A DNA stretch of 63,693 nucleotides, counting the filler, from Pelomyxa schiedti (taxonomy: Eukaryota > Protista > Evosea): NCBI GenBank assembly GCA_020536535.1. It is 12 parts of 12 records of this genome, joined end to end, with 100 filler letters (N's around TTAATTAATTAA, not from the genome) between each part and the next. Parts side by side here need not be neighbours in the genome. Positions count along the whole stretch, not along the records: positions 59,993 to 61,531 come from JAHLWZ010000342.1; 11 more parts are not named here. One strand, written 5' to 3'. How positions within the stretch are numbered: the stretch's first letter is position 1; each line of letters begins with the position of its first letter. The translations under genes and the position numbers were made by a program. Of this stretch, positions 28,461 through 63,378 are shown piece by piece. The notes under the pieces are model-generated. The model was not told the DNA's origin. It ran no database searches and was given only the letters and a program-made list of their open reading frames with translations.

Positions 28461-31400
28461 TCATGTCCCATTGTATTCTTCACCATATTCATCCCTCCAA
28501 TGGTTAAGGTTATCCCAGGCCGCGCTTTCAAGAACTTGGAAGTTCGGGAATAAAGGTTCCAGAGCCCGGAGAAGCGGAACAACAAACAGCGGCACAAAAG
28601 TGTTCTGGGTGCTACATTAGTTGGAACCGGTAAGTGGCTTTTATAAAACCTGCAAGTCCAGGACAGTTGCCGTTCCTCCCATAAAACTAGAGGCAACCAA
28701 TCCTCGGGCCCTTTCATCGGCGCCTTGTTGGGCAAACTCTTTCATTTGCCGCGTTGCCCATTCTTTGCAAATAGACCACTGCCGGTAAGGATTGCTTAAA
28801 TCTGCAGCCTTCAATAGTAGCTGAAGTATAAGCAACTTTCCGGGCGATGTAGAGGATACAAAAGCAGCATGGTCCCTGGGAGGACCTCCCGTGGCTTCGG
28901 TAGTGCTTTCTGGGACCCAAGACTTGATGGCGTCAATAAGCTCCACATGTTTTACCATGTCTGTGGCATTGATAAGATTGAAAACCATCTCAATGACATA
29001 TTTCTGATGACGAGGAGACAAATCAGCAAGTGCTTTGCACTCCGGGTCAAGCAATAGTTTCTCAAGAGCATATGCAGCGTGTGACCTTTCCAGGGGTGAA
29101 TCTGCGAACTTGATATATGTTGGATGGAGTGTCTCACGAAGGAACACGTTGTTGCGTCCTGGGTGCCTATAATCATGTGCAGCTGCAGCAATAAAACATG
29201 CAAGACGGTCCAGTGGCGAAATAGTCTCTCGGAAACTTGGTGAGGCATATTCAGCCATTCCAAGTAGACAATGAAAAGCTTGCGTTACATCAGCTGCATG
29301 GTACTTGTTGTGATACGGATTTTCCTGTTTAGGAGAACTAGGCTCAGCTTGGGGATCCGCACAGTAATCTTCTTCGAGCTTTCCAATGAACTGCTGCAGC
29401 AATTTATAGTTAACTCTGTGTAACTTGAATGGCAGCTGCTGCTCCAGGATAGCGGAATAAAAAACAGACTGTAGGACGCTCTTTTCTCCAATAGTGTTCG
29501 CTACCTTAACATAATTTCAGAGAAGTATATGAGTATGTGCTGTACCTGAAAAACGTTGAACGCCCACTGATTAACTGGTATTCTTGTGACAGTGATAGCG
29601 TTATCTTCCTTGAGAGGTGTCACCTTATCACACTCATCTTGCCTACCAGAGCCAAGCCCGGAGTGTTGGTCCATATTTATGCCACAGTCGTGGACGAATT
29701 GCTTTTGGTTGGGATCGAGTTCCACAAGTGCTCTTACTCCTACTTAAATTAATACAATTGCCTGGTGAGGAACAACATACCTTGAAAATTTCGGTGTAAA
29801 AGAAGAATCCTGGCATTTCTGACTGCTTTAATATGCTCCTCTCTTAATCCCCTTTTTGGATTATCACTGATTTCACGTAGCACATCGGCAATCTGATGAG
29901 CAGTGAATGTATGTATCTTTACGACGAACACATACTTCCTTCAAATCACTTGTCAGAGCACTGACAGCAAGCAGGTCTATGTCATGCTGTCCAAGGTTTC
30001 CAGTTTGGAGTTTCCTTTCTTGAATTTCAAAATGTAGACCCGCTATTTTTGCGGTGAGACCAGCATACTTTCGCGTGACAACACTGTAAGCCCCAACGGC
30101 ACCAGCAGCAACAACCATGGTTGTTCCAAGAACTGCTGAGAGGCTGATCATGAGTACCACGGCACGCCTGTCATCTTTTGTAGCTTGCTCCTCATCAATG
30201 ACAGCAATTACAATCCACCTGGAGCGAGGGACAAATCGCCAAGAGATGAACCTCTTTCCAGTAACAAACTCGATGGAGGCCATGTAAGTTTCCCGACTGC
30301 TGTATTCGTCACAGGTTGGCTCGATTGCATTTGCAATGTACTTGTATCTCGGATTTGAAAAGATGTTCCATTCTGTAGAGTTGTAGCCGGGACTTGTGAG
30401 AATCTCTGAGTAGTTGAAAGCACCAACGTCAGAGAGATACGACGCATTGACCCAGTCCGCGGCCCCGCTCTCTTGGATCATCATCAGAGTTCCATCAAAT
30501 GAGGTCAGTACAACATATGCACCATCAGCCAAGTTGTTTGTCATCTGGTACACTTGTGCTACAATCGTTGTAACAAAAGCATCCATTCCACAGGTTCCGA
30601 CATCGCCGTTAGGATCAATCCTTGTGTCATTTAGATCAAGGTACACAGAAGTGACCCAGTTCCTTGTAACTTTATCTATATATGGGCCAACCCAGAAGAC
30701 CCCTCGGCTATCACGGGGAGTAATTTCTGGTGAAAGAAATGGAGGTATCATCAGTTGCACAGTGTATAGGGGGAAGAAGGGGTAGATCATTGAGTATCCA
30801 TTCCTTGCTGTGAAGTAAACCTGTTGAATAACATCTACCCACGCCGTCTCTATGTTCTTTATCAGTGGTCCCAATCCCCCAAGCCTCCAGAAGTACGTCT
30901 CTACAATTTCTTGCAGCTCAGTTGAATTGTGATTCTGTGCCATAAACAGAACCTGCGCCGGTCCTCCAAAATCAGTCATTGTTGCATATGCCTGGCAGCC
31001 GGGACAACTTGCTAGAGTATAATTCCTAAGGCATTTAATAGTTGCTTTCACAACGTTGGTAAAGTACCAGTACCCATAGGTATCAATCTCCTTGGAACTG
31101 GCCATGCGGGGAGTCGCAAGTGCATCCCCAATATCACTGCAATGTGCTATCAAAACTGGCTGTATGGTTTCACAAAAAGAAGATACAGGTCCTGAGTGTA
31201 ATTATAAGAAGATAGAAAGCTAAATCTCTGCATACCAGAAGCTGAAGCGGTAATGGATTCCACATATAACCTTGTTTGGTTCTTGATGCTTTCTACCACT
31301 TTTGCAGCAAAGACAGACACAACGATAGCCCCTGAGGCAGCAACCACAGCACAGGCAATAAATAGTCCCACTGCAACCCACCCACTTCCCTGCCCCTGGT

Positions 31401-33138
31401 CCTTTTCGTCTTGTACCTTTTTGCTGCTGTTCTTGTCACCAACTAAACCTCTAGTGTTGATGCTCTTTGTGGGGTTCCTATTGCGCCTGATAGGAACGCC
31501 AGGGTAATATTGTGTGGGTTTGTTGGTACTTTTGGCTGGTGATGATGATTTGTTCAGCGCATTCATAGGTATATCTTGGTTTTTATTCCCGGAGTTATTA
31601 TTAGGCCGCTGCTGATGCTTTTGATGGCCGTGATATGATGATAACGATGAGGATGAGGATGAGGAAGATTGTGGTGGGTGTTGTAGCTTGTCCTTTGCCA
31701 GCATCATTGCCCTTCTTCTTCTCTCGCTCTCCTTATCACTGTCCCCAGAATCTGACTCATCAGTGTGGTCGGTGACACACCCACCCTCACCATCATAGTC
31801 TCCAACATCCCCGCCATCAGTTGTACCACCATTATACAAGCTAGCGCACCCTCCACCGTACCCACTATACACATTGGCATGTACATTTGCATTTGCATTG
31901 ATGCTGATGTTGGTGGCTGCAGTAGTAGTAGTGGAAACATGAGCAGCCATCGTCACTGCAGTTGCATGTGCCGCTGATGCCGATGCCGATGCAGATGCCG
32001 AGGCCACAGAAGTTGTGGCTGCGATAGTGGATGCTGCTGTGTGCTGCACCACTCCTTGTTGTGTGGTCCTTGTTGCCGACGAGCTACAACCAGCATGGTC
32101 CTCCTGCTTCCTGTGAACGCGGGTGGATGACGACGAAGGGGGCGTCGTGGCAGGCTCCTCCTCCTGCTCGTGCAACTTGTTGTTGTTGGGAACAACACTC
32201 TGCTGGGTCTGCTGGTTGTGTGGTGGTGGCGGCGGCGGCGGCGGCACATCGGGGCTGCTGTGGCTGCGGCTTTGGCTGCGGCTGTTGCTGTGGCCGTGGT
32301 CGTGGCCGTGGCAGCGGTGGCGGCGGGCGCGGCAGCACCGGCAGTGGTGGCAGTGGTGGCAGTGCCCCCCGCCGCGGTGGGAGGGGCCGTGGGCGTGCGG
32401 GGGCCGTGAACGGGAACCACTACCTCCACCACCACCACCCTGGGAAGGCGATGGAGAGGGAGAGGAGGCGGGAGGGGCCCCGGTCGTCGAGGGGCAGGAA
32501 GGAGAAGACGACGACGAGGGCGAGGCCGATGAGGAGACAGACGGAGACATGCCCGGCGACAGCCCGGGCGACAGCGACGACGTAGACGAGGGCACCGCCG
32601 GGGACGCCCCGCCCGCCACCCCGCCCGCCGGGGACGACGACGTAGGGGTGGCGCCCCGGGCGGAAGCCGCAGCAGGGCGCAGCTCCGGCGGCTGCGGCTG
32701 CGGCTGCGTCTGCGCATGCGTATGCGGCAGCGGGTGCTGTGGCACTGCCGCTGCCACGGGGCCGCCTTTGGTGTGTGCCGGGGTGGGGGCGGGCGGGGGC
32801 AGGGCAACGCGGGGCCTGGGCCTGGGGCTGGACCGGCGGTACTCCACGTTGCTCGTGCTGCTGCTGCTGCCTTCGTCGTCTGTTGTTGTGGTTGTGGTGG
32901 TTGTGGTGCCAGAGTCATCCAGGAGTGTGGCATGTTGGTGGGGGGGTGGTGACGATGATGGTGGTGGGATGGCGTAGTGGTGATGTTGTTGGGTGTTTGT
33001 TGCTGTGGTGGTGGTATTTACACCGGGGTATCGCCCTCCCATCAGCCGGATACGCCTTCGCTCCTCCTGGGACGGCGACCACGACGTGGACGACCATGAC
33101 TCTCCTTCGTCTTCGTCAGCTAGGTCCATTCCATGCAT
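28461..33138 (-). CDS. Two-TM, extracellular Cache-like sensor, class I 3',5'-cyclic nucleotide phosphodiesterase
   Basis: PDEase_I motifs NPYHNKYHAADVTQ, AAAAHDYRHPGRNN, LERSH, INATDM, LLKAADLSNP...W...EF.QQG..E. TM1 WVAVGLFIACAVVAASGAIVVSVF and TM2 AVVLMISLSAVLGTTMVVAAGAVGAYSVV flank a region with Cache-like WVGPYID...GTCGMD. The ORF 31150-33186 exon splices in frame to the ORF 29873-31153 exon. Confidence 0.88.
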
Positions 33139-33681
33139 TGATTCACGCAGCGTTGTTGTTTCGCATTCGGCGTGATCAAAACTCACTTCAAGGAATCATT
33201 GCACCGACATGTTGTGGATTATTCTCCAATTTGGCAGTTTGGCTTTTGTGGCACTCCAGAATCATTTTGGATTTTACGTGGCTAGTTTTCAGACCCGATT
33301 TAATTATCGTTAATACGCCACATAGATCTTGGGAAAAAAAAGGGAATGGTGTACACCATTAGAAAGGCTGACGTAATAACGGGTTTAGATTTTCTATCCA
33401 AATATTTAGCTCACCACAGTTTTGTTCCAACAAAAAAAAAAGGTTGTTCTGGCTGTGGGTGATATTTATTGGGTTATTTGCTTGTGCAGGCACACGCAGC
33501 GGGTGCGGTCTAGGCACAACACTGCGGTGGCTGGTCTGGACTGTGGGACATGTGTTGGTGTTACAACATTCATGTGGGTGGNNNNNNNNNNNNNNNNNNN
33601 NNNNNNNNNNNNNNNNNNNNNNNNNTTAATTAATTAANNNNNNNNNNNNNNNNNNNNNNNNNNNNNNNNNNNNNNNNNNNN

Positions 33682-34693
33682 AAGTGCTACTGTTTGTGTG
33701 TAAGTATAATGTGAAACCAGTGGTTTGGTTGATGATATACCTTTTCTGGAGTGCCTGTCACAGTGGAAGCTGTTGTGTCTTTTTCGACTTGTTCAGTGTG
33801 TTTGGCAGTTTTTTCTTACCGTCTTTAGTTTTGGAGTGCTTTTTGTGGTTATCGGATGTTCTCTTGTTCACCTTGTCATTACTGGTCTCCTTCTTTTTCT
33901 TGTCTGATTTCTTCGAGTCAGTTTTCGTCTTACTTTTGGAGGACTTTTTCTTGGAGGTATCTTTTGACGAGGGTTTGCTTGCCTTTGGCTTTATTGTTCT
34001 TTGATTCTTTGCTTTGTTCCGGCTTTTTTTGTTCTCCTGTCGAATCGTTCAGAACATCAGCACACCGTGGTGCAGCAGGAGCTTTCAATAAAAGGGGTTG
34101 CTCGATTTTGTATCATGCAACTCAATTCTTTCAATCACTCAAGGGGTGTTTTTGGGAGATGAAGTCAGTCAGTATCACCTGATCCAAAGAGCTCACTGAA
34201 TCCTGTACATCAAGTTGTGGTTGCTCAGCACCACCACCCTCATTATCACCGTGATTAGTGGCGACTTGAACCCACCTTGGACTTTTCCACAAGTTTGTCT
34301 TTTACAGAACTTTCCCGCCATCACTCCCAACAGACAGAGGGGACTAGTATCACTGCTATCAACAGAGCTTCCCATTCCGATGCTATCTGACGTGTCCAAA
34401 GCAACTGCAACTGGGTCTGCCCCGGGACCGATTCCGGCGGCCGGGAGCGTAGGCGGCGTGGGTTTTGCGGCCGCGGCGGAGATTCGTGATTGCGGCGATT
34501 TGTGAGATTCCCTCAAGTGACGGCGCAGAGCCGACGCAGGTACCAATGACCCACACACAGGACAAAACTCCTCCGCCTCGTTTTCGTTATCGTCGGTGTC
34601 CACATTCGGGGGACGACCGTAGTCGTCGGCTTCACTGTCACCGCTGTCGTTAATTGGCTGAATAAAATAATCAACGGACCGGAACGCTGTCAT
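33682..34693 (-). CDS. Protein with a C2H2/UBZ-like zinc finger and a Lys-rich region (3' partial)
   Basis: FCPVCGSLVPASALRRHLRESH. Downstream Lys-rich reading frames; exon structure unresolved. Confidence 0.45.
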
Positions 34694-35094
34694 TTTCGTT
34701 ATCGTCGCTCAGGATCGGCGGTCCGGTGTTTTTTATGCAGCCCGGATTTCCGAAATCCGTTCAAGCGGTGACAGGTTGATTCCCCTGCATTGGAAAAGCC
34801 TGATTGATGAAGTTGGTAACAACGGCAATATTTCCGAGAGTGGTGGGAAGTTGGAGCGGCGAGCCGAGTCCCCCCCCCCCCCCCGCACGTGATGCACCAC
34901 AAAACAAGGCGACGACGAAGTGGGCACATTAAAAACAAACAACCTTCCACACCACAACACACTGCATAGTAAATGAACAAAAAGAAAAACCTTTNNNNNN
35001 NNNNNNNNNNNNNNNNNNNNNNNNNNNNNNNNNNNNNNNNNNNNNNNNNNNNNNNNNNNNNNNNNNNNNNNNNNNNNNNNNNNNNNNNNNNNNN

Positions 35095-36454
35095 GTATCA
35101 CACATGCAACTGGACGTTTCAGTACCTGCCTCGAAGTCTGCAATTACCGGAGCGTTGAACCTCCATGAAAATCGCATCACCACCATATAACCAACAATTC
35201 GCAATTACCCCGCACGTGATGCACCCCCTGAGCACGTTCGCCTGTCTTCGTCGTCGCCTTGTTTAGTAGTACTAAGTGGGTACATTAAAAACAAAAAAAG
35301 CCACGTTTACCCGTTCGTTCGCGTTCCCTTTTTTCTTTTCTTTGCTGCAGATCTGTGTCAGAAGGGGCGGCACCTCTCACACAGAGATCTTGCCTGGGCC
35401 CTTTGTCGTCTGTACCGCCGTTACCAACACACAGTGCCCCTTTGACCTGACTTTGGGAACCCTCAGTTGCGCAAAAATTTGCGAAATGTCGCCACGGGTG
35501 TCGCCACGGGGTGTCTTTATACTTCGATTTCTTCAAACAAATCATAAAAATAAAAAAAACCCAGCGGACCAACTCTACCGCAAGCATCTTCGTAGTCGTG
35601 CAACGCACGGAAGGTATTGCAATTCATTTTACATCGAGACGCTTTTGTTTTACACCTACGTATCGTGTAAGCACTAATTTACTACAAAATCACCTTACTT
35701 TACCTCCACGCCTAATATTGATTTGCAGAGAGGATGGTCTCTGTAGCTGTAGAAATTCCTCTGAGCAGTATAAATTTCCTTCCTACTATTAATCTTTTTT
35801 ACCTTGCACAGTGTATCATATCACATTTATTAACAACTACAACAAAATCTCCAAGGGTGGTTTTATTGCTGCAAAAGGTAAAACGTAGGTCTCAAAACAC
35901 ACCCCTTGGTGCCGATTGGCGCCAAGGGAACAAGGGAACAAGGGAAACACCCCTTTGGTGCCGATTGGCGCCAAGGGGGTGTTGTTTGCACGAGCCGAGC
36001 TGCTGCTGAGGTTATATCTCGCCGCGGACTTTGCAGATTACAGAGTCTCAAGTATTCCATTCACCTTACTTTACCTCCACGCCTAATATTGATTTGCAGA
36101 GAGGATGGTATTGGGAAGTATTTCGCGACGATCATTTTCGCGGATCCTGCTGTGGATAAAAAAATCAACGGAACCCCATTATTTTCTCTTTACAAAGCGA
36201 AGGCGTTTCTTTTATTATGCCAAGGTGTAGTGGTTTTTGGTGCTGGAAACGAAAGTTTCTGGGCGAACGAACATTCTGGGTCACACTTTAGTGGAAACGG
36301 TGTAAGGGGGTTATGTGGTGTAAAGGGATTTCTTGATGGGGTAATTGCGAATTGTTGGTTATATGGTGGTGATGCGATTTTCATGGAGGTTCAACGCTCC
36401 GGTAATTGCAGACTTCGAGGCAGGTACTGAAACGTCCAGTTGCATGTGTGATAC
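35095..36454. repeat. 117-bp perfect inverted repeat (35095-35211 / 36338-36454), probably assembly or amplification artefact
   Basis: gtatcacacatgcaactgg...gcaattacccc is the exact reverse complement of ggggtaattgc...gcatgtgtgatac. The left arm abuts a 100-N gap. Confidence 0.85.
35690..36109. repeat. 49-bp direct repeat (35690-35738 / 36061-36109) enclosing two tandem GC-rich hairpins (35902-35928, 35946-35983)
   Basis: tcaccttactttacctccacgcctaatattgatttgcagagaggatggt occurs twice. The hairpin core CTTGGTGCC-GATT-GGCGCCAAGG occurs twice (one copy has an extra T). Confidence 0.85.
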
Positions 36455-37163
36455 AGTCAAAAAGTCATCTCTACAAGATACAAAAGAACCTGTGGCCACC
36501 CTGTTGATAGTAATAAGAAGATAATGAGTTGAAAATGCCATCTTTTCATTGAGAAGATTGACATTCTCCTCTCAATTTCGTATTTGACAAGTGGCGGACA
36601 GTGCTTCGGTTGGAATATAGGCAAAAAAACAAGAAATCAAGTATGGATTCAACAGCCAGAGGATTGGAGCCAGAGCGTTACAGCTGAGGATCGACAGCAT
36701 CAGGTGTACATCGACGGTGAGATCAGGTCACCCGTCGTCTTGTTTGTCTGCGACAGATCTCATTTCTACGTTGTTCTTCCACGCTTGTCAAGGTGTCGTG
36801 TCACCTTGGAGGAAATTCGTTGTGACCAGGCCTCAAACAGATCGATCTGAAGAACCTAATGAGCAATGACCGTTGTACAAGGGACACGCGGCACCCATCC
36901 TCTACGCGGTAATCAGAATCGGGGCATTGTGGGTTGATGCTGAGGGAAATGTGGGGGGAGTGTGCTGTGTTTGTTTCTTCTGCGACTACTGCGATAGGAG
37001 ATCAATGTCAGAGTCCAGAACGCCAAGATCGAACGGTGCCTCCTCTGAATCATTTGATTCGGCGAATCTGGATATCGCCAAGACGAAGCGATGACGTCTT
37101 TGTGGGTGTTGGAGGAAAAAAGAAAAAAAAGCCAACAAAAGCGGTTTGCATACTAGTTGGTGA

Positions 37164-37706
37164 ATGGTCGGTTCCGTGGCGTTTGGTTTGGTATTTGTGG
37201 TGTTGGCACTGAGCACCGCCCCTGCAAATTGTGGGAGGGGCACAACCAGCACCAACTACGAAGGTGGTGCTAGTGTTGCTAAGAAAAATGTGGGAAGCTA
37301 TTGTGCAGGCACGGCGTTGCATTACCCACTTGGGACGTACCCTCTGATGAGTGGCACTGCTATTGTGAAAAAGAACATCGACGCTTATGGTATGAGTGAT
37401 GGAATGAGTATGAGTAATGGCTAGTGAATTATGGGATCAGGGGCTTGATTGGTGTACCTTTGATGGATTGGAAATGAATTCTTTTGGAGGATGCATAGAT
37501 AAATGTGAACAATTCAAACTAATCAAAGAAAAGTGGAATACCTTGCTGGGTCTGAGGCTTCCAACCTTGACATAGCTGCGTTCCCAGAGTGGGACGGGAT
37601 TTCTAGCGTGGGATTTGAACAGGATAACAGTTCAGCCATGGTGTGAGGTAATACTCACAATATTACTGGTCAAAAATAGAAAGTAATTACCATCACCAAT
37701 GCAGGA
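37164..37706 (+). CDS. Putative secreted protein, 5' partial or degenerate
   Basis: Signal-peptide-like MVGSVAFGLVFVVLALSTAPANC, GT donor at about 37389. Downstream frames contain stops. Confidence 0.3.
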
Positions 37707-43373: not shown

Positions 43374-44843
43374 TTATGGGGTGTGGTGGTGGTTGTTGTT
43401 GTGAGGGGAACTGAAAGAGAAACACCTGACGATGGAGGTATCAGTGTACCAATGTTGTATCAACTTCAGTCTGAAGAGTGGTCTGTTGTCCTCCACGTTC
43501 CTCACGTCGATGTGCTGGATGGTGTCCGAGTTGTTGTTGTTGTTGTTGTCGGCACTCTCCGTGGGCCCCACCACCTTCTTCTTCTTCTTTTCTTACATGG
43601 CCAACATGAGCCCGGTGTCTGTCTCCCATTCCACCGACATGAACCCTGTGGTGTCGACAGTCATCAGCACCTTCTCCGGCATGTTCACGTCGCGTAACTC
43701 ATATCTCCCATCGTATGTGATGCAGAACTTGGTTCCGTTCCCAATTGGGAACAAGTTCCTGGCCTCAGACCCGGCACTTTGGACGAGGTGAGGTGCTGAT
43801 GGATTCTTCCTCTTGATGACGTATACTCTGCCCATCGATGATTTGGCAACCACGACTGCGCCGTCGCCCAGGTTGCAGTTGCAGTCATCATCAGAGGAAC
43901 CAGACCTGATCACAAACGGCTTCGAAATAGTCTCACCTTCCCGGGGCTGCATCCCAGTCACCAGCCACCTCTCGATCTCGTGGAATCGCTTTCTCTCCAC
44001 TGACTTCTTAACATCCCAGAATATTATGTCATGCTCAGCCTGTGTGGAATTCGCGTTCGGCTTACGGGAAACAAGGAGCGCCAGGTGGGGCTCCCTCTTG
44101 CTCAGAGTGACCAGGGAAATCACGTGCCCTTCCAACAGGCCCAGTTCTTCTTGTTGAACTTTCAACAGGGAGGAGGAAGAGGAGGCAGAGGAGGAGGCAC
44201 TTCCAATTTGTGGTGGTGTGGGGGGAAGCAGGGCAGGCTCAACGTAAAATTCTGGTTCAGCTCCATAGTGATAAAGGACCCAGTGGCTGTTTGTTCTGCA
44301 GTGAAATTCTCGAGGGGGAGGGGTGGGGATCACCAGCAAGACCCTCGAGTCACCCGGTCTTTGCACGTTGCGAAGCTTGAAAATGGAAGGGGTTCCCGGG
44401 CCATTCTTCTGGTGAACGACGTAGTGATCCTCTCCGGCCCAGGTCACCAACCAGGGCTCTTCAGGGGAACGCCACACGGGATTGACTTCCAATTCCGAGG
44501 ATATGACACCCGCATCCTGCCAGAGTCCGAGCTTCAGGGCTCGCTCTTCAGGAGTTCCTTGACCGGTGCTGGTGCGGAGCACGATGACAAGCCTCTTCTC
44601 GGAGGCCCTTGCCAAAATGAAGACGGAATATAACAACGAGGGCGTCAGAAATCGCAGGGCAGAAGCACTTCCGCACCTGGGAAGAGTTCCCGCGAGCAGG
44701 CTCACCATCTGCTCTCTCAAGTAAATTCCTTCAATGTGCGGCTCCACGGAGCTTGTTGTCACTTGGAAGTTTCCAGAAGGAACCTTGGTGGTGGTGGTGA
44801 CGTGTTCCACCAGCGTTGCCACTCCTGTGGAAGCGGAAGTCAT
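43374..44843 (-). pseudogene. 'RCG..SPA' orphan family member with one in-frame TAA
   Basis: REQMVSLLAGTLPRCGSASALRFL motif. ORF 43593-44843 and ORF 43374-43574 are in the same frame, separated only by TAA at 43595-43593. Confidence 0.55.
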
Positions 44844-45487
44844 TCTTGTCTCTGCACTATTATTATCGGCTGAGGCTGCTGGGTTTTGGGGGATTGGGCT
44901 GCGTCACAGTGGGCTTGCGCTGGCTCTTTGTCACGGCACTTGGGGTGGAAGAGAAGGACGAGGACGAGGACGAGGAAGAGGAAGAGGAAGAGGAAAAGGA
45001 GCGGGTTTTGGTGGATAGTCGCTGTCTCGGCGACGATGAGGACGAGCGGGGGGGGAGCAGACGGGGAATGAGACCCCAAAGAAGCGCTTGTTGTGGATGT
45101 GGTTGTGGATGTGGCACAAGATGACGAGGATGATGCTGACGAAGCAGCAGCTTCGGGGGTGTTGTTGTCTGGGTCAGGAGTTGTTGATGATGATGATGAT
45201 GAACCCGACGCGGCGGAGGAGCTCCTGGCCGTGGTCGTTGTGGTTGGGGCGGCGGTGGCTGATGATGATGGTGATGATGATTGGTGCGCGCGGGTGCCCC
45301 TCCTGGGCCTCTTTGGCTGGGTGGTGAGGGGAGCACCGCGGGCGTCTCGGCCGAACGGTGCGGCCATGAGCAGAGCCTGGATGTCTTGCGGGAGACCCGA
45401 CAACTCGCGCTCCATGTCGGCTTCGCACGACGGAGCTTGGTGCGTGGAGGAGGCGGAGAGGGAGCTGCTCGTTTTGTTGGCCTGCAT
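44840..45487 (-). CDS. Low-complexity ORF, possibly the N-terminal part of the downstream family gene
   Basis: MQANKTSSSLS... Ser/Thr-rich. Its stop overlaps the next ATG (ATGA). Contains GAGGAC/GAGGAA repeats prone to slippage. Confidence 0.3.
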   Translation of the reverse strand: MQANKTSSSLSASSTHQAPSCEADMERELSGLPQDIQALLMAAPFGRDARGAPLTTQPKRPRRGTRAHQSSSPSSSATAAPTTTTTARSSSAASGSSSSSSTTPDPDNNTPEAAASSASSSSSCATSTTTSTTSASLGSHSPSAPPPLVLIVAETATIHQNPLLFLFLFLFLVLVLVLLFHPKCRDKEPAQAHCDAAQSPKTQQPQPIIIVQRQE

Positions 45488-46721: not shown

Positions 46722-47984
46722 CTATAACATTAATAACAGAGAGGCGGTCCACCTGCAACATTGAAAACCAACACTAGACAGAGTGAGGATGTGTGTGCCT
46801 GTTGATGGTTCAATCACCTCCACATAAGTCCTCTCATCATGGCCGTGGTGAAACCCAGCTTTGATAATCAAGCCTCCCTCACAGAATGCTGACACATCGA
46901 CGCCAGTGCACCCAATCAACCTCTGTGGCCCTGTGGTGGCTGCGTTGATGTCCCAGATTTCGAGCTTGTCACATCTCTCTGAGGTGAAGAATGCAACAGA
47001 AAACAGAGAGTCACTCAGCTGTGAGACCACGTATCCTCCAGAACCGCAAAGGGGCAGAAGAGCCACTGAACAAGCTGAAGAATGTTGTTCAATGTTGGTG
47101 GGTGGTGGTTCCTCCACTTGGATGATGTAGCGTTTATTTCCACTTTCAGAAAAAAGTCCAGCAGAGAGGATGAAGACCTGACTGCCAGTCCTTTTGTACA
47201 TCAACAAAGTGGTGTCTATCCAGTCCACTTCAGCTTGGAACTTCGTGCTGCCCAGCACTGCGATCTTTCTTGTTGCCCAGCTTTGGGCAACTTGCACCCT
47301 TTTCAACTCAAACGTGCGAGAATGAGGGCTACTTCTGATGGTCATAATACCCTCGTCAGAGAACTTGGCGTCTCTGAAGAAAAATTGCACTCCACGCGAT
47401 TCAGGAATCTGCACCGTCACTGCAATGTTCTGTGGGCGTTGTTCTGATTCAATGTTTGCAATAAGCATGATTCCCCTGTAAGCCATGTTCACAATCCATT
47501 TTGCATTGATTGCAGGAAAGTTAGAGTGAACCCTGTCCACCAGGCACCAGCACTCGTGGCTCTTGATGTTCCTGAGGTACAGTCCAGCTGCAAGTTCCAC
47601 CATGTTACAGAGATTGGCAAAGATCAACCTCCGACTGCAGGCTTCAATTTGGTGCACCCAGTGAACATCACCCAAAACTGATCCCAAAACCTCAGACACT
47701 CTGAACTGGGCAACACAATTTGTTGGGCACTGTGAGAGCGGCATACAGAATAACCTTGTCACTTGGTGACAGTAATCCCACAAGAGCCTGATGGCCAGCA
47801 GCAAGTTTTGTTCATCACCACCACTCACTTGCAACGAGGGAGGTGGCGACGGCGACGATGATGGTGACGTCACCATCATTCCGTGGCCATGACCATTGCA
47901 CCGAGGGTGCGTCACCAGCAACAGTGAAACGAATTGGTCTCGTGCACAGAGGCATGACGCCACAACAACACCCGTTGAGTTCAT
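46722..47984 (-). CDS. Intronless 'ARDQ...HPRC' orphan family protein
   Basis: CARDQFVSLLLVTHPRC...IRLLWDY; C-terminal SQLSDSLFSV, LEIWDIN, EGGLII, VEVIEPSTGTHILTL. Confidence 0.75.
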   Translation of the reverse strand: MNSTGVVVASCLCARDQFVSLLLVTHPRCNGHGHGMMVTSPSSSPSPPPSLQVSGGDEQNLLLAIRLLWDYCHQVTRLFCMPLSQCPTNCVAQFRVSEVLGSVLGDVHWVHQIEACSRRLIFANLCNMVELAAGLYLRNIKSHECWCLVDRVHSNFPAINAKWIVNMAYRGIMLIANIESEQRPQNIAVTVQIPESRGVQFFFRDAKFSDEGIMTIRSSPHSRTFELKRVQVAQSWATRKIAVLGSTKFQAEVDWIDTTLLMYKRTGSQVFILSAGLFSESGNKRYIIQVEEPPPTNIEQHSSACSVALLPLCGSGGYVVSQLSDSLFSVAFFTSERCDKLEIWDINAATTGPQRLIGCTGVDVSAFCEGGLIIKAGFHHGHDERTYVEVIEPSTGTHILTLSSVGFQCCRWTASLLLML

Positions 47985-48025
47985 TTTTTTTCGCTGAATT
48001 GATTTCTTTGAATCGAGGGGAAACA

Positions 48026-48837
48026 ATGGCCACAGCTTCTGTAGCCACGACCACGAGCAGCAACCCAGGTGGCGTCGAGGGCGAGGGCAACGGCACCACG
48101 ACCGCGACGCCGCAGACAACGACCGGCGTCAGCAGCAGCAGCAGCAGCAACAACAACGGGGTCGCCAAGAAGGACTTTAGGAAGAAGCACGCGGGGAGCG
48201 CGACGGCGGTGGTGGTGCCGCCCATCGCTGACGCCGTCGCCGCCGCCGCCGTCCCGTCGTCAAGAGACCCATCCACTAAAACGTGTGTCTGTGTCTGTGT
48301 GTTTCACGCTTATGGGTTGGTTGCTCCAGAGGGGTTTTTTTATTTGTTAATTTATTATTTATTAGTTTATTAACACCTGACCAAAACATAAATCAAAAAC
48401 AAACCTCACACAACAGGATAGCATGCGGTGCTGCGCACGAGATTGCGAACCGTTTGGGAGTCACTCCATTGGAGGTGGGAGTGCAACTGGACCTTCTCAA
48501 CATCAGAATATGTGATTGCTCGATGGGGATATTCTCTTGGGGTCACAACAAACTCGAACCAATGTTGGACGTTCCTGCTGGTACCAAAAAAAAACAATTT
48601 GCTCACTTTTTTTTTTAATTGAATTTATTTTATTTTTAATAAATATTTATTCACTTATTAATTATTTTTAACACAGACCTGAGAGCGGCACTGGAATCCA
48701 CACAGAGTGAAGGCCGAATTTCATGTGCAGCACTGTGGAGGATTTCAGATGAACTCCACATCAACAAGTCCGATGCTGCAAGAGCGTGTGACACACTAAA
48801 ACTCCGAATCGCACCATGTCAACTTGGTGCGTTTTAG
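48026..48837 (+). CDS. Small two-repeat Cys protein (C..A..IA..L...G...D.L.I.I..CQLG.F) of anaerobic-prokaryote type, with 2 introns
   Basis: Spliced: ...RIACGAAHEIANRLGVTPLEVGVQLDLLNIRICDCSMGIFSW...DLRAALESTQSEGRISCAALWRISDELHINKSDAARACDTLKLRIAPCQLGAF*. Confidence 0.8.
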
Positions 48838-49791: not shown

Positions 49792-49891
49792 NNNNNNNNN
49801 NNNNNNNNNNNNNNNNNNNNNNNNNNNNNNNNNNNTTAATTAATTAANNNNNNNNNNNNNNNNNNNNNNNNNNNNNNNNNNNNNNNNNNNN

Positions 49892-50684
49892 ACTGGCTTC
49901 CTGTTGTTCCCTCAGAGTGCTCAACAACGATCACCGCCTGCGATGGAATCACTTTATTCAGCGTAAGGAACGTGGCTCTGTAAGAAGGATACGGAAGTGC
50001 AACAGAAACACCAGAATCCACCCCCGCCGTTGCCGTAGGTGCCACAACAAACAGCTTTCCACCACTCTTGAGGTTCACCAGCCAACTCCTGTTTGCACAC
50101 AAGTGCGAAATGCTCCCCTCCTCCCTCCGCCTCAGTACCGTTAGGGCACCACTCAACGCATCGACCATCTTGACCTCAGGCCTCCCAGCTGTGAGGCCAT
50201 CCACCCCAATGAACCTGTTCTCATCTACCCACTGTTGCTTCTCGAAGAAGTAGGCCAGGTTCGCCGTCACTTGCACGCCGCCACCCATAATCCCGAGAAG
50301 CAGAGGCGACACGGAAAACCTGAAACTGCACACGAGCTCCACAGCATCTGGTGATTCGTCTCTCACTGCAACACAGATGGCAACTACCCTCTGGCAGCCC
50401 ACGACCCAGTCGTCCCACAATTGCCTCAGCACGTGGGCTCCCAGCGCGCGGGCGGGCGACCGCGCCCCGCACCTCGCCGAGAAAACCGCGAGCGCCAGCG
50501 ACGAGAGCTGTGCGGGGGCGCTCAGTCCCCCGTCGTGGATGGTGACGTCGCCCAGCCAGTCTGGCTTCGTCACTTTGATCGGCGCAGCAACGTCCGCTTC
50601 CTTTTTTACTTGTGTTGTTGGTGGTGCTCGTGGTTGATCGATCCTTGGTCTCTTGTGCGTCGGTGACGTACGTTCGTCTGACAT
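49892..50684 (-). CDS. Orphan family member (ARCGARSPARAL), 3' truncated
   Basis: SAPAQLSSLALAVFSARCGARSPARALGAHVLRQLWDDWVV; tandem paralog of 50768-52008. Confidence 0.75.
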
Positions 50685-50767
50685 GGATGATGACTTTTTT
50701 TTTTTCCTAAGGGAATGATGGAAGCGATATCAGATTCACTTACAATAAGTACGTGTCCTTTGTAGTG

Positions 50768-52008
50768 TCACCACAAGAAAGATGTTTTGGGGGACAGACC
50801 AACAAACCACCAACCGGTGATACTAAATATCACCGGAATCAGTGTGGACGAAGCATCAATCACCTGAAGTGTTCTGCAGCAACTTTCAATGGCAATAACG
50901 AGGCCACTACCAACGAGGTATTGGGTCTCACTCTCAACTTGTGGGATGCACTTCACCACTGGCTTGTTTGTTGTGTCGTTGCAGTCCCAAATGTCCAGCC
51001 TCTTTTCCTCTTTGTGGAGGACTGAGAACATCGATCCACTCACTTGATCCAAAATGCAACCATTTCGATGCACATACAGGGCAGTCACCTCTCCGTTTGA
51101 TTGCACCGACCACACAAATGTGTCCCTTATGATGTTGGAAGCACTCACAAGGAATACGTTTTGGCCACACTTGTTCTGCAATGCCACAATGGTGCCCAAC
51201 AGATACCCCTCATCCAGATGCTGTTGAAATGGGGTTGTGCTCAAAACATGCAGTATTTTTGTGGCATAGCTCTTCCCAACATCAATCACCCAGAAATACC
51301 TGCGCATTCCACTTGCTATTAGAGCCACTGCAAGTGATGGGTTCGCCTTACTCAGTGCAAGCAAGGAAGCGCAGCACCGATCAGGAATCACAATTGTTAT
51401 TGGACCCTGCTTCCGTTCTCTCATGTCTGTGATAAATAGCTTGGATCCACTGTGCCCAATAACTTTGCATTTTCAGTGCATGACTTGGTTGAAATGGACT
51501 CAAATTCATCATCCCTGGCTCTCTGCCTCCTTCTGAGTCTTTTCCAAGAAATGGACTCGACCACACGCACGGGGCCCATAATCCCAAGCAGCAGTGGCGA
51601 CACGGCAAACTTAAAGGTGCACGACTGATTGGTGGCAGACCCGCAGGGCTTCACGGCCACGTCGACGGTGATGTGCTTTTGGCAGGCAACGACCCACTCG
51701 TCCCACAATTGCTTCAGCATGTAATTTCCCAGCGCGCGGGCGGGCGACCGCCCCCCGCACCTCGCCGAGACTACCGCGAGCGCCAAAGACGAGATCTGGG
51801 AACGCGCACTCACGCCACCGTGTATCTCGATGTCGCCCAGCCAATCTGGCTTCGTCACTTTGATAGCGTATCCACTCCCCACACAACTTGCTTTTGTTGC
51901 TGTTTCCGTTGTAGTTGTGGCCTCGCTTTGTTTGTCGGTGGCGTTTGGAGGTTCGTCGATTCTCGGTCTCTTGTTTGTTGGTTCCGCTGCCGCTTCGTGC
52001 CCCCACAT
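50768..52008 (-). pseudogene. Orphan family member with an internal frameshift near 51455
   Basis: N-half (ARCGGRSPARAL...LWDEWVV) and C-half (LDQVSGSMFSV, LDIWDCN, LSPKTSFLW) lie in different frames. The segment GSKLFITD continues upstream of the second ORF's ATG. Confidence 0.6.
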
Positions 52009-59171: not shown

Positions 59172-59892
59172 TTACTTTGCACTGTGGCCTGGAAACCGCC
59201 TAGCAAGTTTATGTACGTGTCCAAGGGCAAGGTCCAGCATACCTACGACGGCGGCTGGAGCGACGGGCTGAGGAACGGGCGGGGGGTGCTCACATGGCCA
59301 GACGGTTGTACGTACGACGGTGAGTGGAAGAACGACGCCCAAGACGGGTGGGGTGTTCGGCACTGGCCAGACGGCTCGTTGTACGAGGGGCTGTGGCGTG
59401 GCGGGTACTGGTGCAGGGGGATGTGGCACGACTCCAACGGCGTAGACGTGAAGGAGGGCGAGTGGGCGCTGGATGCCTCGGCACAATTTCACAACATGCA
59501 AGGATGGGGAGTGTGGAGGAAGAGGATGATCAGGGGTGATGATGGGAGATACATCGAGGCCAAGACGACCCAACCTCCTCGTGGTGGTGGTGACGCGGTG
59601 GTGACACAGGCCGGCGCCACCACAGAGGCGATGGTGACTGTGTATGAGGGTGAGTGGAACAACGATCAGATCCACGGGTGCGGAATGTGGAAGAGTGAAA
59701 AGACAGGCACAATCTGGTGTGGTGAGTTGGTACACGGTGCTGGAAATGGAAAAGGGAGGATGCTCATTGGTGAGAACAGCCCCCACAACGACCCAGGAGG
59801 GAGCTACGTGGGTGAGATGAGGAACGGGAGGTTCCATGGGGAGGGTGTGAGGTTGTGGTCAAACGGTGACAGGTATCAGGGAAACTGGGTGG
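59172..59892 (+). CDS. MORN-repeat protein, partial
   Basis: YDGGWSDGLRNGRGVLTWPDGCTYDGEWKNDAQDGWGVRHWPDGSLYEGLW, YVGEMRNGRFHGEGVRLWSNGDRYQGNW. Confidence 0.9.
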
Positions 59893-60310: not shown

Positions 60311-61531
60311 TCACAGAGCGACATTGTCAAAGATGAAGAATTTGTATTCTGAGGCACGGTCGACGATGAGGAGCTGGTTTGTTGATGGAATCCACGATGT
60401 CAGCAGCACCAGGGTGCCTGAAGTAGGGAGTGAGTTTCTGTAAGTGTCATCATAAACACCAGTGGTGGTGTCATACACCCCGTCGATCTCCCTGCTGTTG
60501 TATGACTTTCCAAAGTAGAACCTCCCACACACAACAAATGCAAAGCCTGTCTGCGACTTGACGCGGGGCACCACCCACGTCTGCAAGATTGCGAGGGAGT
60601 CAGGGTCCACCCTCGTGATGTGTATGTTGCCGTGTTTGGGTGGTGCGTGGACCACGAACAGCACACCCCCTGCATCAACATACCAGCAAATGTCCGTGTA
60701 TCCACCCCAGTTCCAGCTTGATTGGCTTGAGTGGCCGGCGTTTGGGAGTGGTGCAGTTGCCACCGTTGACCCGTCGCTCACGCGCACCTTGGTCATCGTG
60801 GCTGCGTTGTGTGGGTTGCAGTACACGTGGCCGTTGTGCACTGCCTNNNNNNNNNNNNNNNNNNNNNNNNNNNNNNNNNNNNNNNNNNNNNNNNNNNNNN
60901 NNNNNNNNNNNNNNNNNNNNNNNNNNNNNNNNNNNNNNNNNNNNNNAGTGGCCGGCGTTTGGGAGTGGTGCAGTTGCCACCGTTGACCCGTCGCTCACGC
61001 GCACCTTGGTCATCGTGGCTGCGTTGTGTGGGTTGCAGTACACGTGGCCGTTGTGCACTGCCTGGTAGGTGCCGTCGGGGTAGTTGAGCACGTCCTTGAG
61101 CGTCAATTGCCTTGGGTTGGTGTTGTCGACGAAGTTGGTCATGTTTTGGAACTCTGTCAGTTTTTGGCGAAGGTAGTAGCTGTCCCAGTACACTTTGCCG
61201 GTGGCGTTGTCAACAAACAGCCTGAATGCCTGACGAGGTGTGATGGAGGGCACCATCGATGTGGCAAGTTGTTTGAGTGTCCTCGTTGTGGTTGTTGTTG
61301 TGGTGGATGTTGTGTTTGCCGCCTTTGACATCAGTGAACTCGCTGCCGAATTGTGAACAAGTTTTCCCAGTGAAGAGACTGCACCACAAACAGCAGTACA
61401 TATATTCTCAATCTGTGCTGTGAGAACTTGATTCACTGAAACAACCTCAACATCAGAGAACTGTGTGGTCGCCTGCTGTGCATATTCTTGTGCCATCTGT
61501 ACAACATTCAGCCTCTGATCACATCCCTCAA
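60311..61531 (-). CDS. Olfactomedin (OLF) domain protein with preceding helical segment, 5' partial
   Basis: GTYQAVHNGHVYCN...LPNAG...WNWGGYTDICWYVD..G.LFVVHA...GNIHITRVDPDSLAILQTW...K...GFAFVVCGRFY...YDTTTG. The internal N gap is flanked by a 117-bp duplicate (60730-60846 = 60947-61063); collapsing it gives one ORF. Confidence 0.85.
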
Positions 61532-62014: not shown

Positions 62015-62076
62015 AGATACGTTTTGAATTCATTTACTTGGACAACTTTTTTATGCGATCAGATTAGATTATCAAC

Positions 62077-63378
62077 ATGGACGAAGAGCCCATTCAACAA
62101 CGACACCCACAATTGTGGCGTGGTGACATTCTCGTGGTTCAAGGGGTTTGGGCTGCAGACCAAGTGGCTGCGCTGGCCCTCGCCGGCCACTCGCCCCGCT
62201 GCGGCGCCAACTCCCCAGCGTGCGTTCTTTCACCGCACCTCGTCAACCAATTGTGGGACTCCTGGGTCATTGATTGCCTTCGTTCCGTAGTTATAGAGGC
62301 AGCCGTGGGAGACCAGGGGCCTACATTCCGCAGCTTTTCATCACCCAAGGTCTCGGTGATGCTGAAGCTGTCCCCTGTGCTTCTTGAACTTGTGGGTCGC
62401 GTCGATTGCCTGGGGGTTCCTGGGGATCACAAGCGGTGGGTGGACGACACCAGATTCTGTGTGGCTCGCGAGAATGCCACTTCCATGGTTACTCTCGGCC
62501 GAACTGGAATTGTGGGCGCTGGTGAGAAGTGTGGCAGCCGGGAGATGCCCCTGTTTCCACACAAGAACCTAGTTGAAGAATACTTTGTGAACCAGGAGTG
62601 GTGCCTGCAGTGGATAAATTATGGGAAGCCAACTGGTTTCTCGTTGGTTGTGAGGAGACTCCCACGAGGTGATGAGAGGGAGATGGTGGAGATCCAAGTT
62701 TATTACCAGCCTGTTATTGTACCGCTGCCTGCTTCTAAGTATTTCGGCGAGTCATTCGAATTCAGCAAGGAGATTCCGTCACGTGCGGTGATGATTGTGG
62801 ACGCTGGTGATAAACCAGGCACAATGTTGGTGGTGTTTGATGTTGCCAAAACGCATGCCACGAGAAGCCTGCAAGTTGTGAGCACAACTCATTGCGCTGC
62901 ACTTACTCCAGAGTGGCTTGACGGATTCCCCTTGTGTCGTCTTGCTCTGATGCAAAACAGAGCTGGCGAAATTGTGTTTCTTGTTCAGTCTTCTAGCCTT
63001 TCGTCTCCAAGTTTTGTTCACGCCGTGCAAGCAAATGGGGACACCACACAACTGTACTCTGGAATTGGCTCTTCTCCACTGAGGCAGGTGAGTGGATCAC
63101 TGTTCAGCATTTACCACAAGGGCACCCAAGTGTTGGATGTCTGGGACTGCAGTGATACTTCACCGTCGGCAACAAGTAAGCCATTGAGGAGCATCAACCT
63201 GGTCAAGAACTGCAGCTTCATTTCAGGTGGCGGTTTCATTTTTATTGTGGCAACCCCTGACTGCAAGCAACTTCAAGTTGTTGATGGAGCATCAGGAAAC
63301 ACCACAGCAACAATTGAGTTCCTTGCTTCTGGTTGGTGCATTGAGTCACTCAGCCAAACAACATCCTTCTTGTGGTGA
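62077..63378 (+). CDS. Full-length intronless orphan family protein (433 aa)
   Basis: WAADQVAALALAGHSPRCGANSPACVL...LWDSWV; NQEW; FDVAKT; LRQVSGSLFSI; LDVWDC; GGGFIF; LQVVDGASG; ends TTSFLW like 50768-51424. Confidence 0.8.
   Translation: MDEEPIQQRHPQLWRGDILVVQGVWAADQVAALALAGHSPRCGANSPACVLSPHLVNQLWDSWVIDCLRSVVIEAAVGDQGPTFRSFSSPKVSVMLKLSPVLLELVGRVDCLGVPGDHKRWVDDTRFCVARENATSMVTLGRTGIVGAGEKCGSREMPLFPHKNLVEEYFVNQEWCLQWINYGKPTGFSLVVRRLPRGDEREMVEIQVYYQPVIVPLPASKYFGESFEFSKEIPSRAVMIVDAGDKPGTMLVVFDVAKTHATRSLQVVSTTHCAALTPEWLDGFPLCRLALMQNRAGEIVFLVQSSSLSSPSFVHAVQANGDTTQLYSGIGSSPLRQVSGSLFSIYHKGTQVLDVWDCSDTSPSATSKPLRSINLVKNCSFISGGGFIFIVATPDCKQLQVVDGASGNTTATIEFLASGWCIESLSQTTSFLW

Follow-up and report, generated by a model that had tools for sequence, protein, structure and literature searches.

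The window analysed here is a 63,693-nt stretch of Pelomyxa schiedti DNA in which 12 contigs are joined with spacers, and a gene encoding an olfactomedin (OLF) domain covers most of the 1539-bp contig at 59993-61531 (Table 1). The minus strand of this contig carries two open frames that are parted by a 100-N gap, and 117 bp are repeated exactly at the gap edges (60730-60846 is identical to 60947-61063). Because of this exact repeat, the two open frames are halves of a single reading frame with an assembly overlap, and the true gap distance is negative. A tandem duplication was rejected as the source of the repeat and an assembly overlap preferred, since the paralogs described below have the stretch only once. 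No stop codon or frameshift occurs in either half of the frame at 60311-61531, and the gene is truncated at the right contig end, within a coiled coil. The initial annotation had taken 60311-61531 as one feature, which was correct in that the OLF gene lies there, but the gap and the overlap interrupt the frame. Another inner gap of 100 N's was seen in the window at about 34995-35094, within 33682-37706, and its flanks have no overlap.

Table 1. Features of the OLF gene on the contig at 59993-61531.
Feature	Position	Strand	Evidence
C-terminal end of TRIM coiled coil; 5' part of the gene, which in paralogs encodes RING and B-boxes, is off the contig	61374-61529	-	43/44 residues identical to P0004 289-332; helix in model
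Ser/Thr-rich linker; 20-codon in-frame deletion just upstream, at about 61397	61293-61373	-	Low pLDDT, residues 42-59
OLF propeller, N-terminal part (from P0003 residue 70)	60947-61292	-	Pfam OLF 30.8 bits; structural match starts at residue 69-70
100-N scaffold gap with 117-bp exact flank repeats	60847-60946	.	Flank comparison
OLF propeller, C-terminal part, and stop codon	60311-60846	-	Pfam OLF 78.9 bits; myocilin E 4e-19
Cys198 at calcium-ligand position Asp380 of myocilin	60686-60688	-	Alignment to myocilin
Phe246 at calcium-ligand position Asn428 of myocilin	60542-60544	-	Alignment to myocilin
Ser295 at calcium-ligand position Asp478 of myocilin	60395-60397	-	Alignment to myocilin-like rows

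The motifs from which an OLF domain in a non-animal eukaryote had been proposed were all found, in OLF order, on the minus strand, and the domain is real. The database's joined model of the window copy (P0003) matched Pfam OLF (PF02191) with 99.9 bits (E 2e-28) against a curated cut-off of 23.9 bits, which each half also clears alone (Table 1). An AlphaFold2 model of the window OLF, built from a 40-sequence alignment that included animal OLFs, had a mean pLDDT of 83 and matched noelin-OLF (6qhj) with a Z of 33.5 and an rmsd of 2.0 Å over 244 aligned residues; ranks 1-39 of the structure search were all OLF entries, and the next row, a non-OLF structure, had a Z of 15. Judged from this model, the window copy encodes a predicted complete five-bladed OLF propeller. 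The same fold is found in the animal OLFs of noelin/olfactomedin-1 (6qhj, 6qm3), myocilin (4wxq), latrophilin-3 (4rmk, 5afb), and gliomedin (4d77), at Z 30-33.5 and about 2 Å over about 240 residues, and in noelin and myocilin the OLF is C-terminal after a coiled coil, as it is in Pelomyxa.

The calcium site differs from that of the animal domain. An alteration of the DIDLAVDE calcium motif had been recognized initially, but the change is not confined to that site: the calcium triad of myocilin is Asp380/Asn428/Asp478 (PMC6719662, accessible part), and all three positions are changed in the window copy, to Cys198/Phe246/Ser295 by alignment. Across eight Pelomyxa rows the triad was Cys/Phe/Ser in six and Cys/Tyr/Ser and Gly/Phe/Ser in the remaining two, and Cys followed by an aromatic residue at the first two positions was also found in four myxobacteria-type rows. 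The N-terminal disulfide Cys is absent as well; model residue 70, a Thr in a threonine run, is aligned with residue 203 of latrophilin-3, the disulfide Cys with which that chain starts (PMC4396693, accessible part). Loss of the triad and of the disulfide Cys fits a cytosolic protein without proving a cytosolic location, and gliomedin-OLF, according to the accessible text of PMC4488277, has neither calcium nor disulfide and is yet extracellular. As a natural calcium-free and disulfide-free OLF, the Pelomyxa domain could serve as a comparator for studies of myocilin stability.

The window gene belongs to a family. Of 837 candidates in a search for longer relatives, 11 proteins were returned, every one labelled P. 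schiedti and the window model included, and with P0014, P0016, and P0019, which carry the same label, there are 14 gene models in total, spread over contigs of nine distinct sizes from 1.5 kb to 163,912 bp. Several models are on same-size contigs, which suggests tandem clusters. RING, B-box 1, B-box 2, coiled coil, and OLF are all present in six paralogs (P0004, P0006, P0008, P0009, P0012, and P0013), in which the B-boxes precede the coiled coil in the order of the TRIM layout. A B-box exceeded its Pfam cut-off in 9 of the 11 proteins; the RING exceeded a curated Pfam cut-off in only one of the six paralogs, and P0012 had no RING match, while the C3HC4 pattern with all eight zinc ligands is intact in 6/6. 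The N-terminal half of P0004 had TRIM28, a poor or inactive ligase, as its best RBCC match in the PDB (E 1e-12), and it also matched the RINGs of TRIM2, TRIM3, and TRIM56. Since the window copy shares 43 of 44 residues with P0004 at the coiled-coil end and 94% identity in the OLF, its sequence reads as the 3' half of a gene for a TRIM with OLF at the C-terminus. NCBI's automatic naming calls several paralogs 'TRIM71' and applies 'Olfactomedin-like domain' to some of the models. P0011 ends in a RasGEF tail and P0007 in an ankyrin/SNARE-like one, both likely gene-model fusions.

The initial annotation had stated that OLFs often follow a coiled coil and are generally extracellular. The first expectation was borne out by the match to P0004; the second probably does not carry over to the Pelomyxa family. 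Since this coiled coil belongs to a TRIM layout, in which a RING and two B-boxes come before it, the OLF is likely intracellular. Furthermore, a hydropathy scan found no signal-peptide-like N-terminus in the six full-length paralogs, whose RING stands right at the start, and the N-terminal maxima of this crude scan were 1.27-1.75 in the six as against 1.97-2.95 in four secreted-type controls. Thus a TRIM with an OLF head is likely a cytosolic protein. Compared with animal OLFs, those of Pelomyxa lack a signal peptide, are set on a RING and B-boxes, have a Cys/Phe/Ser triad and no disulfide Cys, and form a separate clade.

Neither of the TRIM types that come closest accounts for this architecture. 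TRIM-NHL proteins (class VII or Subfamily C: TRIM2, TRIM3, TRIM32, TRIM71, and Brat) have, like the Pelomyxa proteins, an RBCC followed by a C-terminal beta-propeller, but the Pelomyxa propeller is modelled as a five-bladed OLF rather than an NHL domain (the Z for Brat NHL was only 12.4), and Pfam gave no match to NHL repeats or filamin in the 11 proteins. Moreover, Subfamily C TRIMs are described as animal-only in the accessible text of PMC3503706, and the host here is amoebozoan. TRIM37-like Subfamily A proteins, which include the single Dictyostelium TRIM, resemble the Pelomyxa proteins as RING and B-box ligases of a protist, but the latter have two B-boxes and an OLF instead of one B-box and MATH, for which Pfam gave no match in the TRIM-OLF proteins, and form an expanded family rather than one gene. 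The Pelomyxa family belongs to the OLF family and has the RBCC layout, but it falls with none of the animal, the secreted, or the calcium-binding OLFs and is neither TRIM-NHL nor TRIM37-like. In the accessible parts of the literature, OLF is presented as an extracellular module of multicellular organisms whose ligands are largely unknown (PMC4488277, PMC6719662), and the TRIMs found outside animals are only those of the MATH-type Subfamily A, with olfactomedin never mentioned (PMC3503706). The word olfactomedin is likewise absent from the accessible main text of PMC8887013, the accessible part of PMC10084454 holds nothing on non-animal OLFs, and none of the literature matches listed dealt with TRIM-OLF, BTB-OLF, or OLF of protists, in a search mostly of papers outside subscription. 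The Pelomyxa proteins are TRIMs with two B-boxes from an amoeba, their C-terminal class is likely new and their OLF likely cytosolic, and the family contradicts both the view that OLFs are only extracellular and the view that non-animal TRIMs are only of the TRIM37/MATH type.

A profile of 10 Pelomyxa OLF domains was compared with 1.84 billion representatives and gave 387 matches at E <= 0.001, of which 150 were listed; the animal or prokaryote label of most rows was inferred from domain architecture and N-terminal sequence. Among these best 150 of 387, the nearest matches outside Pelomyxa were Cys-rich-stalk proteins (E 1e-61 to 1e-51), one of them named Myxococcales, and these were followed by BTB-BACK-OLF proteins and further surface proteins of prokaryote type. 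Myxobacteria-type OLFs (P0018/L001 from Myxococcales and L002 from Polyangiales) are predicted surface lipoproteins on a Stig1/MXAN_6577-like Cys-rich stalk, in contrast to the Pelomyxa OLFs, which by layout are likely cytosolic ligases. Their propellers are nevertheless the closest, the four nearest rows being 39-43% identical to P0003 as compared with 27-32% for the BTB group and 22-27% for 15 animal rows, and they have the DIC(F/W)Y motif and the aromatic residue at position 428 in common with Pelomyxa. In a GTDB scan 3 of 22 candidates were confirmed (one genome each of Myxococcales and Polyangiales, and an uncultured archaeon); none of 33 pattern matches in viral contigs and none of 37 in JGI metagenomes were confirmed, with Pelomyxa-specific patterns that say little about absence. 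The nearest ESM Atlas clusters were chordate OLFs, in an index restricted to clusters of at least 50 members, and only animal clusters were returned. As separate observations, P0064, P0073, P0094, P0096, P0115, P0119, P0137, P0141, and P0148 form a clade of bacterial-type secreted OLFs, most with PEP-CTERM tails, and a second prokaryotic set (P0033, P0038, P0041, P0060, P0066, P0072, P0075, and P0079) with MopE, Stig1, Ig, or T9SS stalks has kept Asp/Asn from the calcium triad; its branches lie around the base of the animal OLFs, and the animal domain may have come from it.

Two other protist lineages also set OLF on ubiquitin-ligase-type scaffolds. BTB-BACK-Kelch (KLHL) proteins are Cullin-3 adaptors whose propeller binds the substrate, and P0028 (from the cercozoan Mataza sp., EukProt) and P0029 have the same layout with OLF replacing Kelch, so that a propeller would again form the substrate head of a ligase scaffold, on BTB-BACK where the Pelomyxa family uses a TRIM. 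P0027 and P0037 clustered with these two in the tree, and a word-index search with P0029 gave no match besides P0029. Lower in the profile ranking were five RING-less proteins with B-box, B-box, coiled coil, and a divergent OLF (P0100, P0118, P0144, P0151, and P0159); P0167 of the ciliate Nyctotherus ovalis is a relative of them, and the six are likely a ciliate family, in which B-boxes were detected and no RING was matched. The calcium triad is missing in all three protist groups (Pelomyxa, BTB, and ciliate-type). Transcriptome-derived protist records could include prey sequence, yet the BTB-BACK and B-box scaffolds are eukaryotic.

The OLF clade of Pelomyxa is not an animal one. In a FastTree analysis of 142 full-domain rows (24 of 166 proteins were dropped as short, partial, or later additions), animal and some prokaryotic OLFs fell on one side and Pelomyxa on the second, with a support of 100. 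A mixture-model tree of 58 chosen rows, unrooted and with near-duplicates and animals thinned, joined Pelomyxa with myxobacteria-type and BTB rows (99/95, in no firm order among the three), ciliate-type with bacterial PEP-CTERM rows apart from Pelomyxa (99/88), and animals with MopE/Stig1/T9SS prokaryote rows (100/99). In AU tests under LG+F+G4, a model that somewhat more often rejects true clades, Pelomyxa with animals (p=0.0002) and a single all-eukaryote OLF clade (p=0.0013) were rejected, and the groupings of Pelomyxa with myxobacteria-type rows (p=0.66, the same as the free tree), Pelomyxa with BTB (0.40), the three protist groups as monophyletic (0.19), and Pelomyxa with ciliate-type (0.15) were not. 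Because animal OLFs group with a different prokaryotic set, the all-eukaryote clade is rejected and plain pre-metazoan descent is disfavoured, and because the tree separates animal from protist OLFs, the domain would have entered eukaryotes, or crossed between eukaryotes and prokaryotes, more than once. The initial annotation had suggested a pre-metazoan origin or a lateral acquisition; descent shared with animals is unlikely, and a transfer from bacteria is the best tree beside protist groupings that survive at p=0.15-0.40. A bacterial donor of the Pelomyxa OLF is thus favoured by the sequence data, though without proof. A bacterial symbiont as the source of the contig itself was excluded by the eukaryotic RING/B-box scaffold.

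It is also conceivable, though doubtful, that an old protist lineage of intracellular OLFs, comprising the TRIM-OLF of Pelomyxa, the BTB-OLF of a cercozoan, and the B-box-OLF of ciliates, was inherited vertically and widely lost, with the bacterial proteins derived by ancient or reverse transfer. The three protist groupings that survive the AU tests allow this, and all three groups have lost the calcium triad and have ligase-type scaffolds. However, the free tree puts ciliate-type rows with PEP-CTERM proteins and Pelomyxa with the myxobacteria-type and BTB rows, the scaffolds of the three groups differ, and the distribution is very patchy among the 150 matches listed.

The Pelomyxa paralogs vary mainly on one face of the propeller. 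When loops were allotted to the two faces from the strands of the model, mean entropy across 10 paralogs was 1.04 bits on the long-loop face as compared with 0.34 on the other face and 0.40 in the strands (loop-level p=0.0003), and 28 of the 37 high-entropy sites lay on the long-loop face. Mean identity within Pelomyxa was 57% on that face, 84% on the other, and 81% in the strands; four control OLF groups, all far more diverged than the Pelomyxa paralogs, had no such deficit (62/58/59, 53/45/51, 50/45/49, and 37/43/35% in the same order). The window copy differs from its nearest paralog, P0004, at 14 positions, 10 of them on the long-loop face (p=0.004). Read-contig variants gave 20 nonsynonymous to 3 synonymous changes on this face and 4 to 7 in the rest of the domain (p=0.005), a count taken from 40 of 91 rows after removal of 2 that lay outside the domain and 4 counted doubly through overlap. 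At 20/23, nonsynonymous changes on the long-loop face are not more frequent than the neutral 76% (p=0.16), and relaxed constraint therefore fits too. The pattern, in sequence and model, is that of a putative variable binding surface, which falls short of showing positive selection. We take the long-loop face to be the one used for FLRT binding by an animal OLF. In latrophilin-3, the channel entrance lies beneath long loops, and blades II-III bind FLRT (PMC4396693).

Taken as a whole, we consider it reasonably probable (roughly 60%) that the contig carries the 3' half of one gene from an expanded Pelomyxa family with RING, B-box, B-box, coiled coil, and OLF, the product likely being a cytosolic TRIM ubiquitin ligase whose propeller, likely derived from a myxobacteria-type surface protein, is the predicted target-binding head. 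The accessible part of PMC5758549 describes TRIMs as binding substrate by the C-terminal domain and as having roles in cell-autonomous defence and autophagy. By analogy with TRIM biology, the coiled coil would dimerise and present two propellers, the long-loop face would bind a target, and the RING would recruit an E2 and tag the target for proteasomal or autophagic removal. The most speculative step is that the targets are microbial (prey, symbionts, or viruses); a repertoire of paralogs with a variable face would then make sense. Pelomyxa is a phagotroph with several endosymbionts (PMC10579272). A broader scenario, which we regard as a rather long shot, is that OLF is a prokaryotic surface-binding module captured several times by eukaryotes, with animals keeping one lineage extracellular, phagotrophic protists (Pelomyxa, armophorean ciliates, and a cercozoan) putting a second on TRIM/BTB scaffolds, and Pelomyxa turning it into diversifying cytosolic microbe sensors, a TRIM5-like cell-autonomous immunity in an amoeba with obligate endosymbionts. 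Attachment to a ligase would make the question of OLF ligands testable, because ubiquitination can trap substrates.

Alternatively, the proteins may be non-catalytic TRIM-like scaffolds or receptors, either autophagy receptors or RNA-binding regulators like Brat/TRIM71, with no ubiquitination of their own. RINGs usually have an Arg linchpin directly after their last cysteine, where the paralogs have His or Gln; the ciliate-type relatives with B-boxes and no RING match point in the same direction. TRIMs can, moreover, serve as ubiquitin-independent autophagy receptors (PMC5758549, accessible part). We nevertheless find this unlikely, as all eight zinc ligands are kept in every full-length paralog, and a hypervariable face would be poorly suited to RNA-motif binding.

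The ligase reading concerns the family, and the window copy itself may be defective, with its RING and B-boxes off the contig and 20 residues deleted. Compared with P0004 its linker is 6 residues longer, and an in-frame stretch of 20 codons is missing at about 61397. Read pieces from paralogs show loose ends at 61396-61404, the deletion site, and a 419-bp read contig covers 61038-61456, this site included, with zero differences, and the deletion is therefore present in the read data. Because the halves meet in a stretch that is identical between paralogs, and no gap-spanning piece was among the 32 read pieces listed (160 more exist), a chimera of two paralogs may be involved. That the family is real and this copy a decaying duplicate or an assembly chimera would be in keeping with the 5' truncation, the deletion, and the gap join, but it seems improbable to us, since both halves are open and the deletion keeps the frame, spares the propeller, and is seen in reads.

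The family is likely transcribed, since two single-cell RNA runs of one sample contained 18 and 10 contigs that match the window contig at 90-99%, and a control contig had GT-AG splice joints in both RNA runs and none in a DNA-type run; the RNA pieces match paralogs and not clearly the window copy. That the contig is animal-derived, or its OLF taken from an animal, is barely credible, for although the contig is short with an intronless visible coding part and the closest ESM Atlas clusters are chordate, there are 14 models labelled Pelomyxa on contigs of nine sizes, the grouping with animals was rejected, and the GC3 of the two halves (0.59 and 0.67) is within the 0.42-0.73 of other window ORFs (one ORF left out).

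Elsewhere in the window, long ORFs at 62068-63378 (+), 43593-44903 (+), 46722-48128 (-), 49836-50729 (-), and 50768-51472 (-) have a common N-terminal motif around 'RCG...SPA' and similar C-termini and are apparently members of a large lineage-specific family, with no Pfam match in the one that was scanned. An ORF at about 59210-59892 (+), cut by a contig end, is presumably MORN-repeat-like, and one at 28641-33195 (-), downstream of a membrane/sensor-like ORF, we take to be cyclic-nucleotide phosphodiesterase-like.
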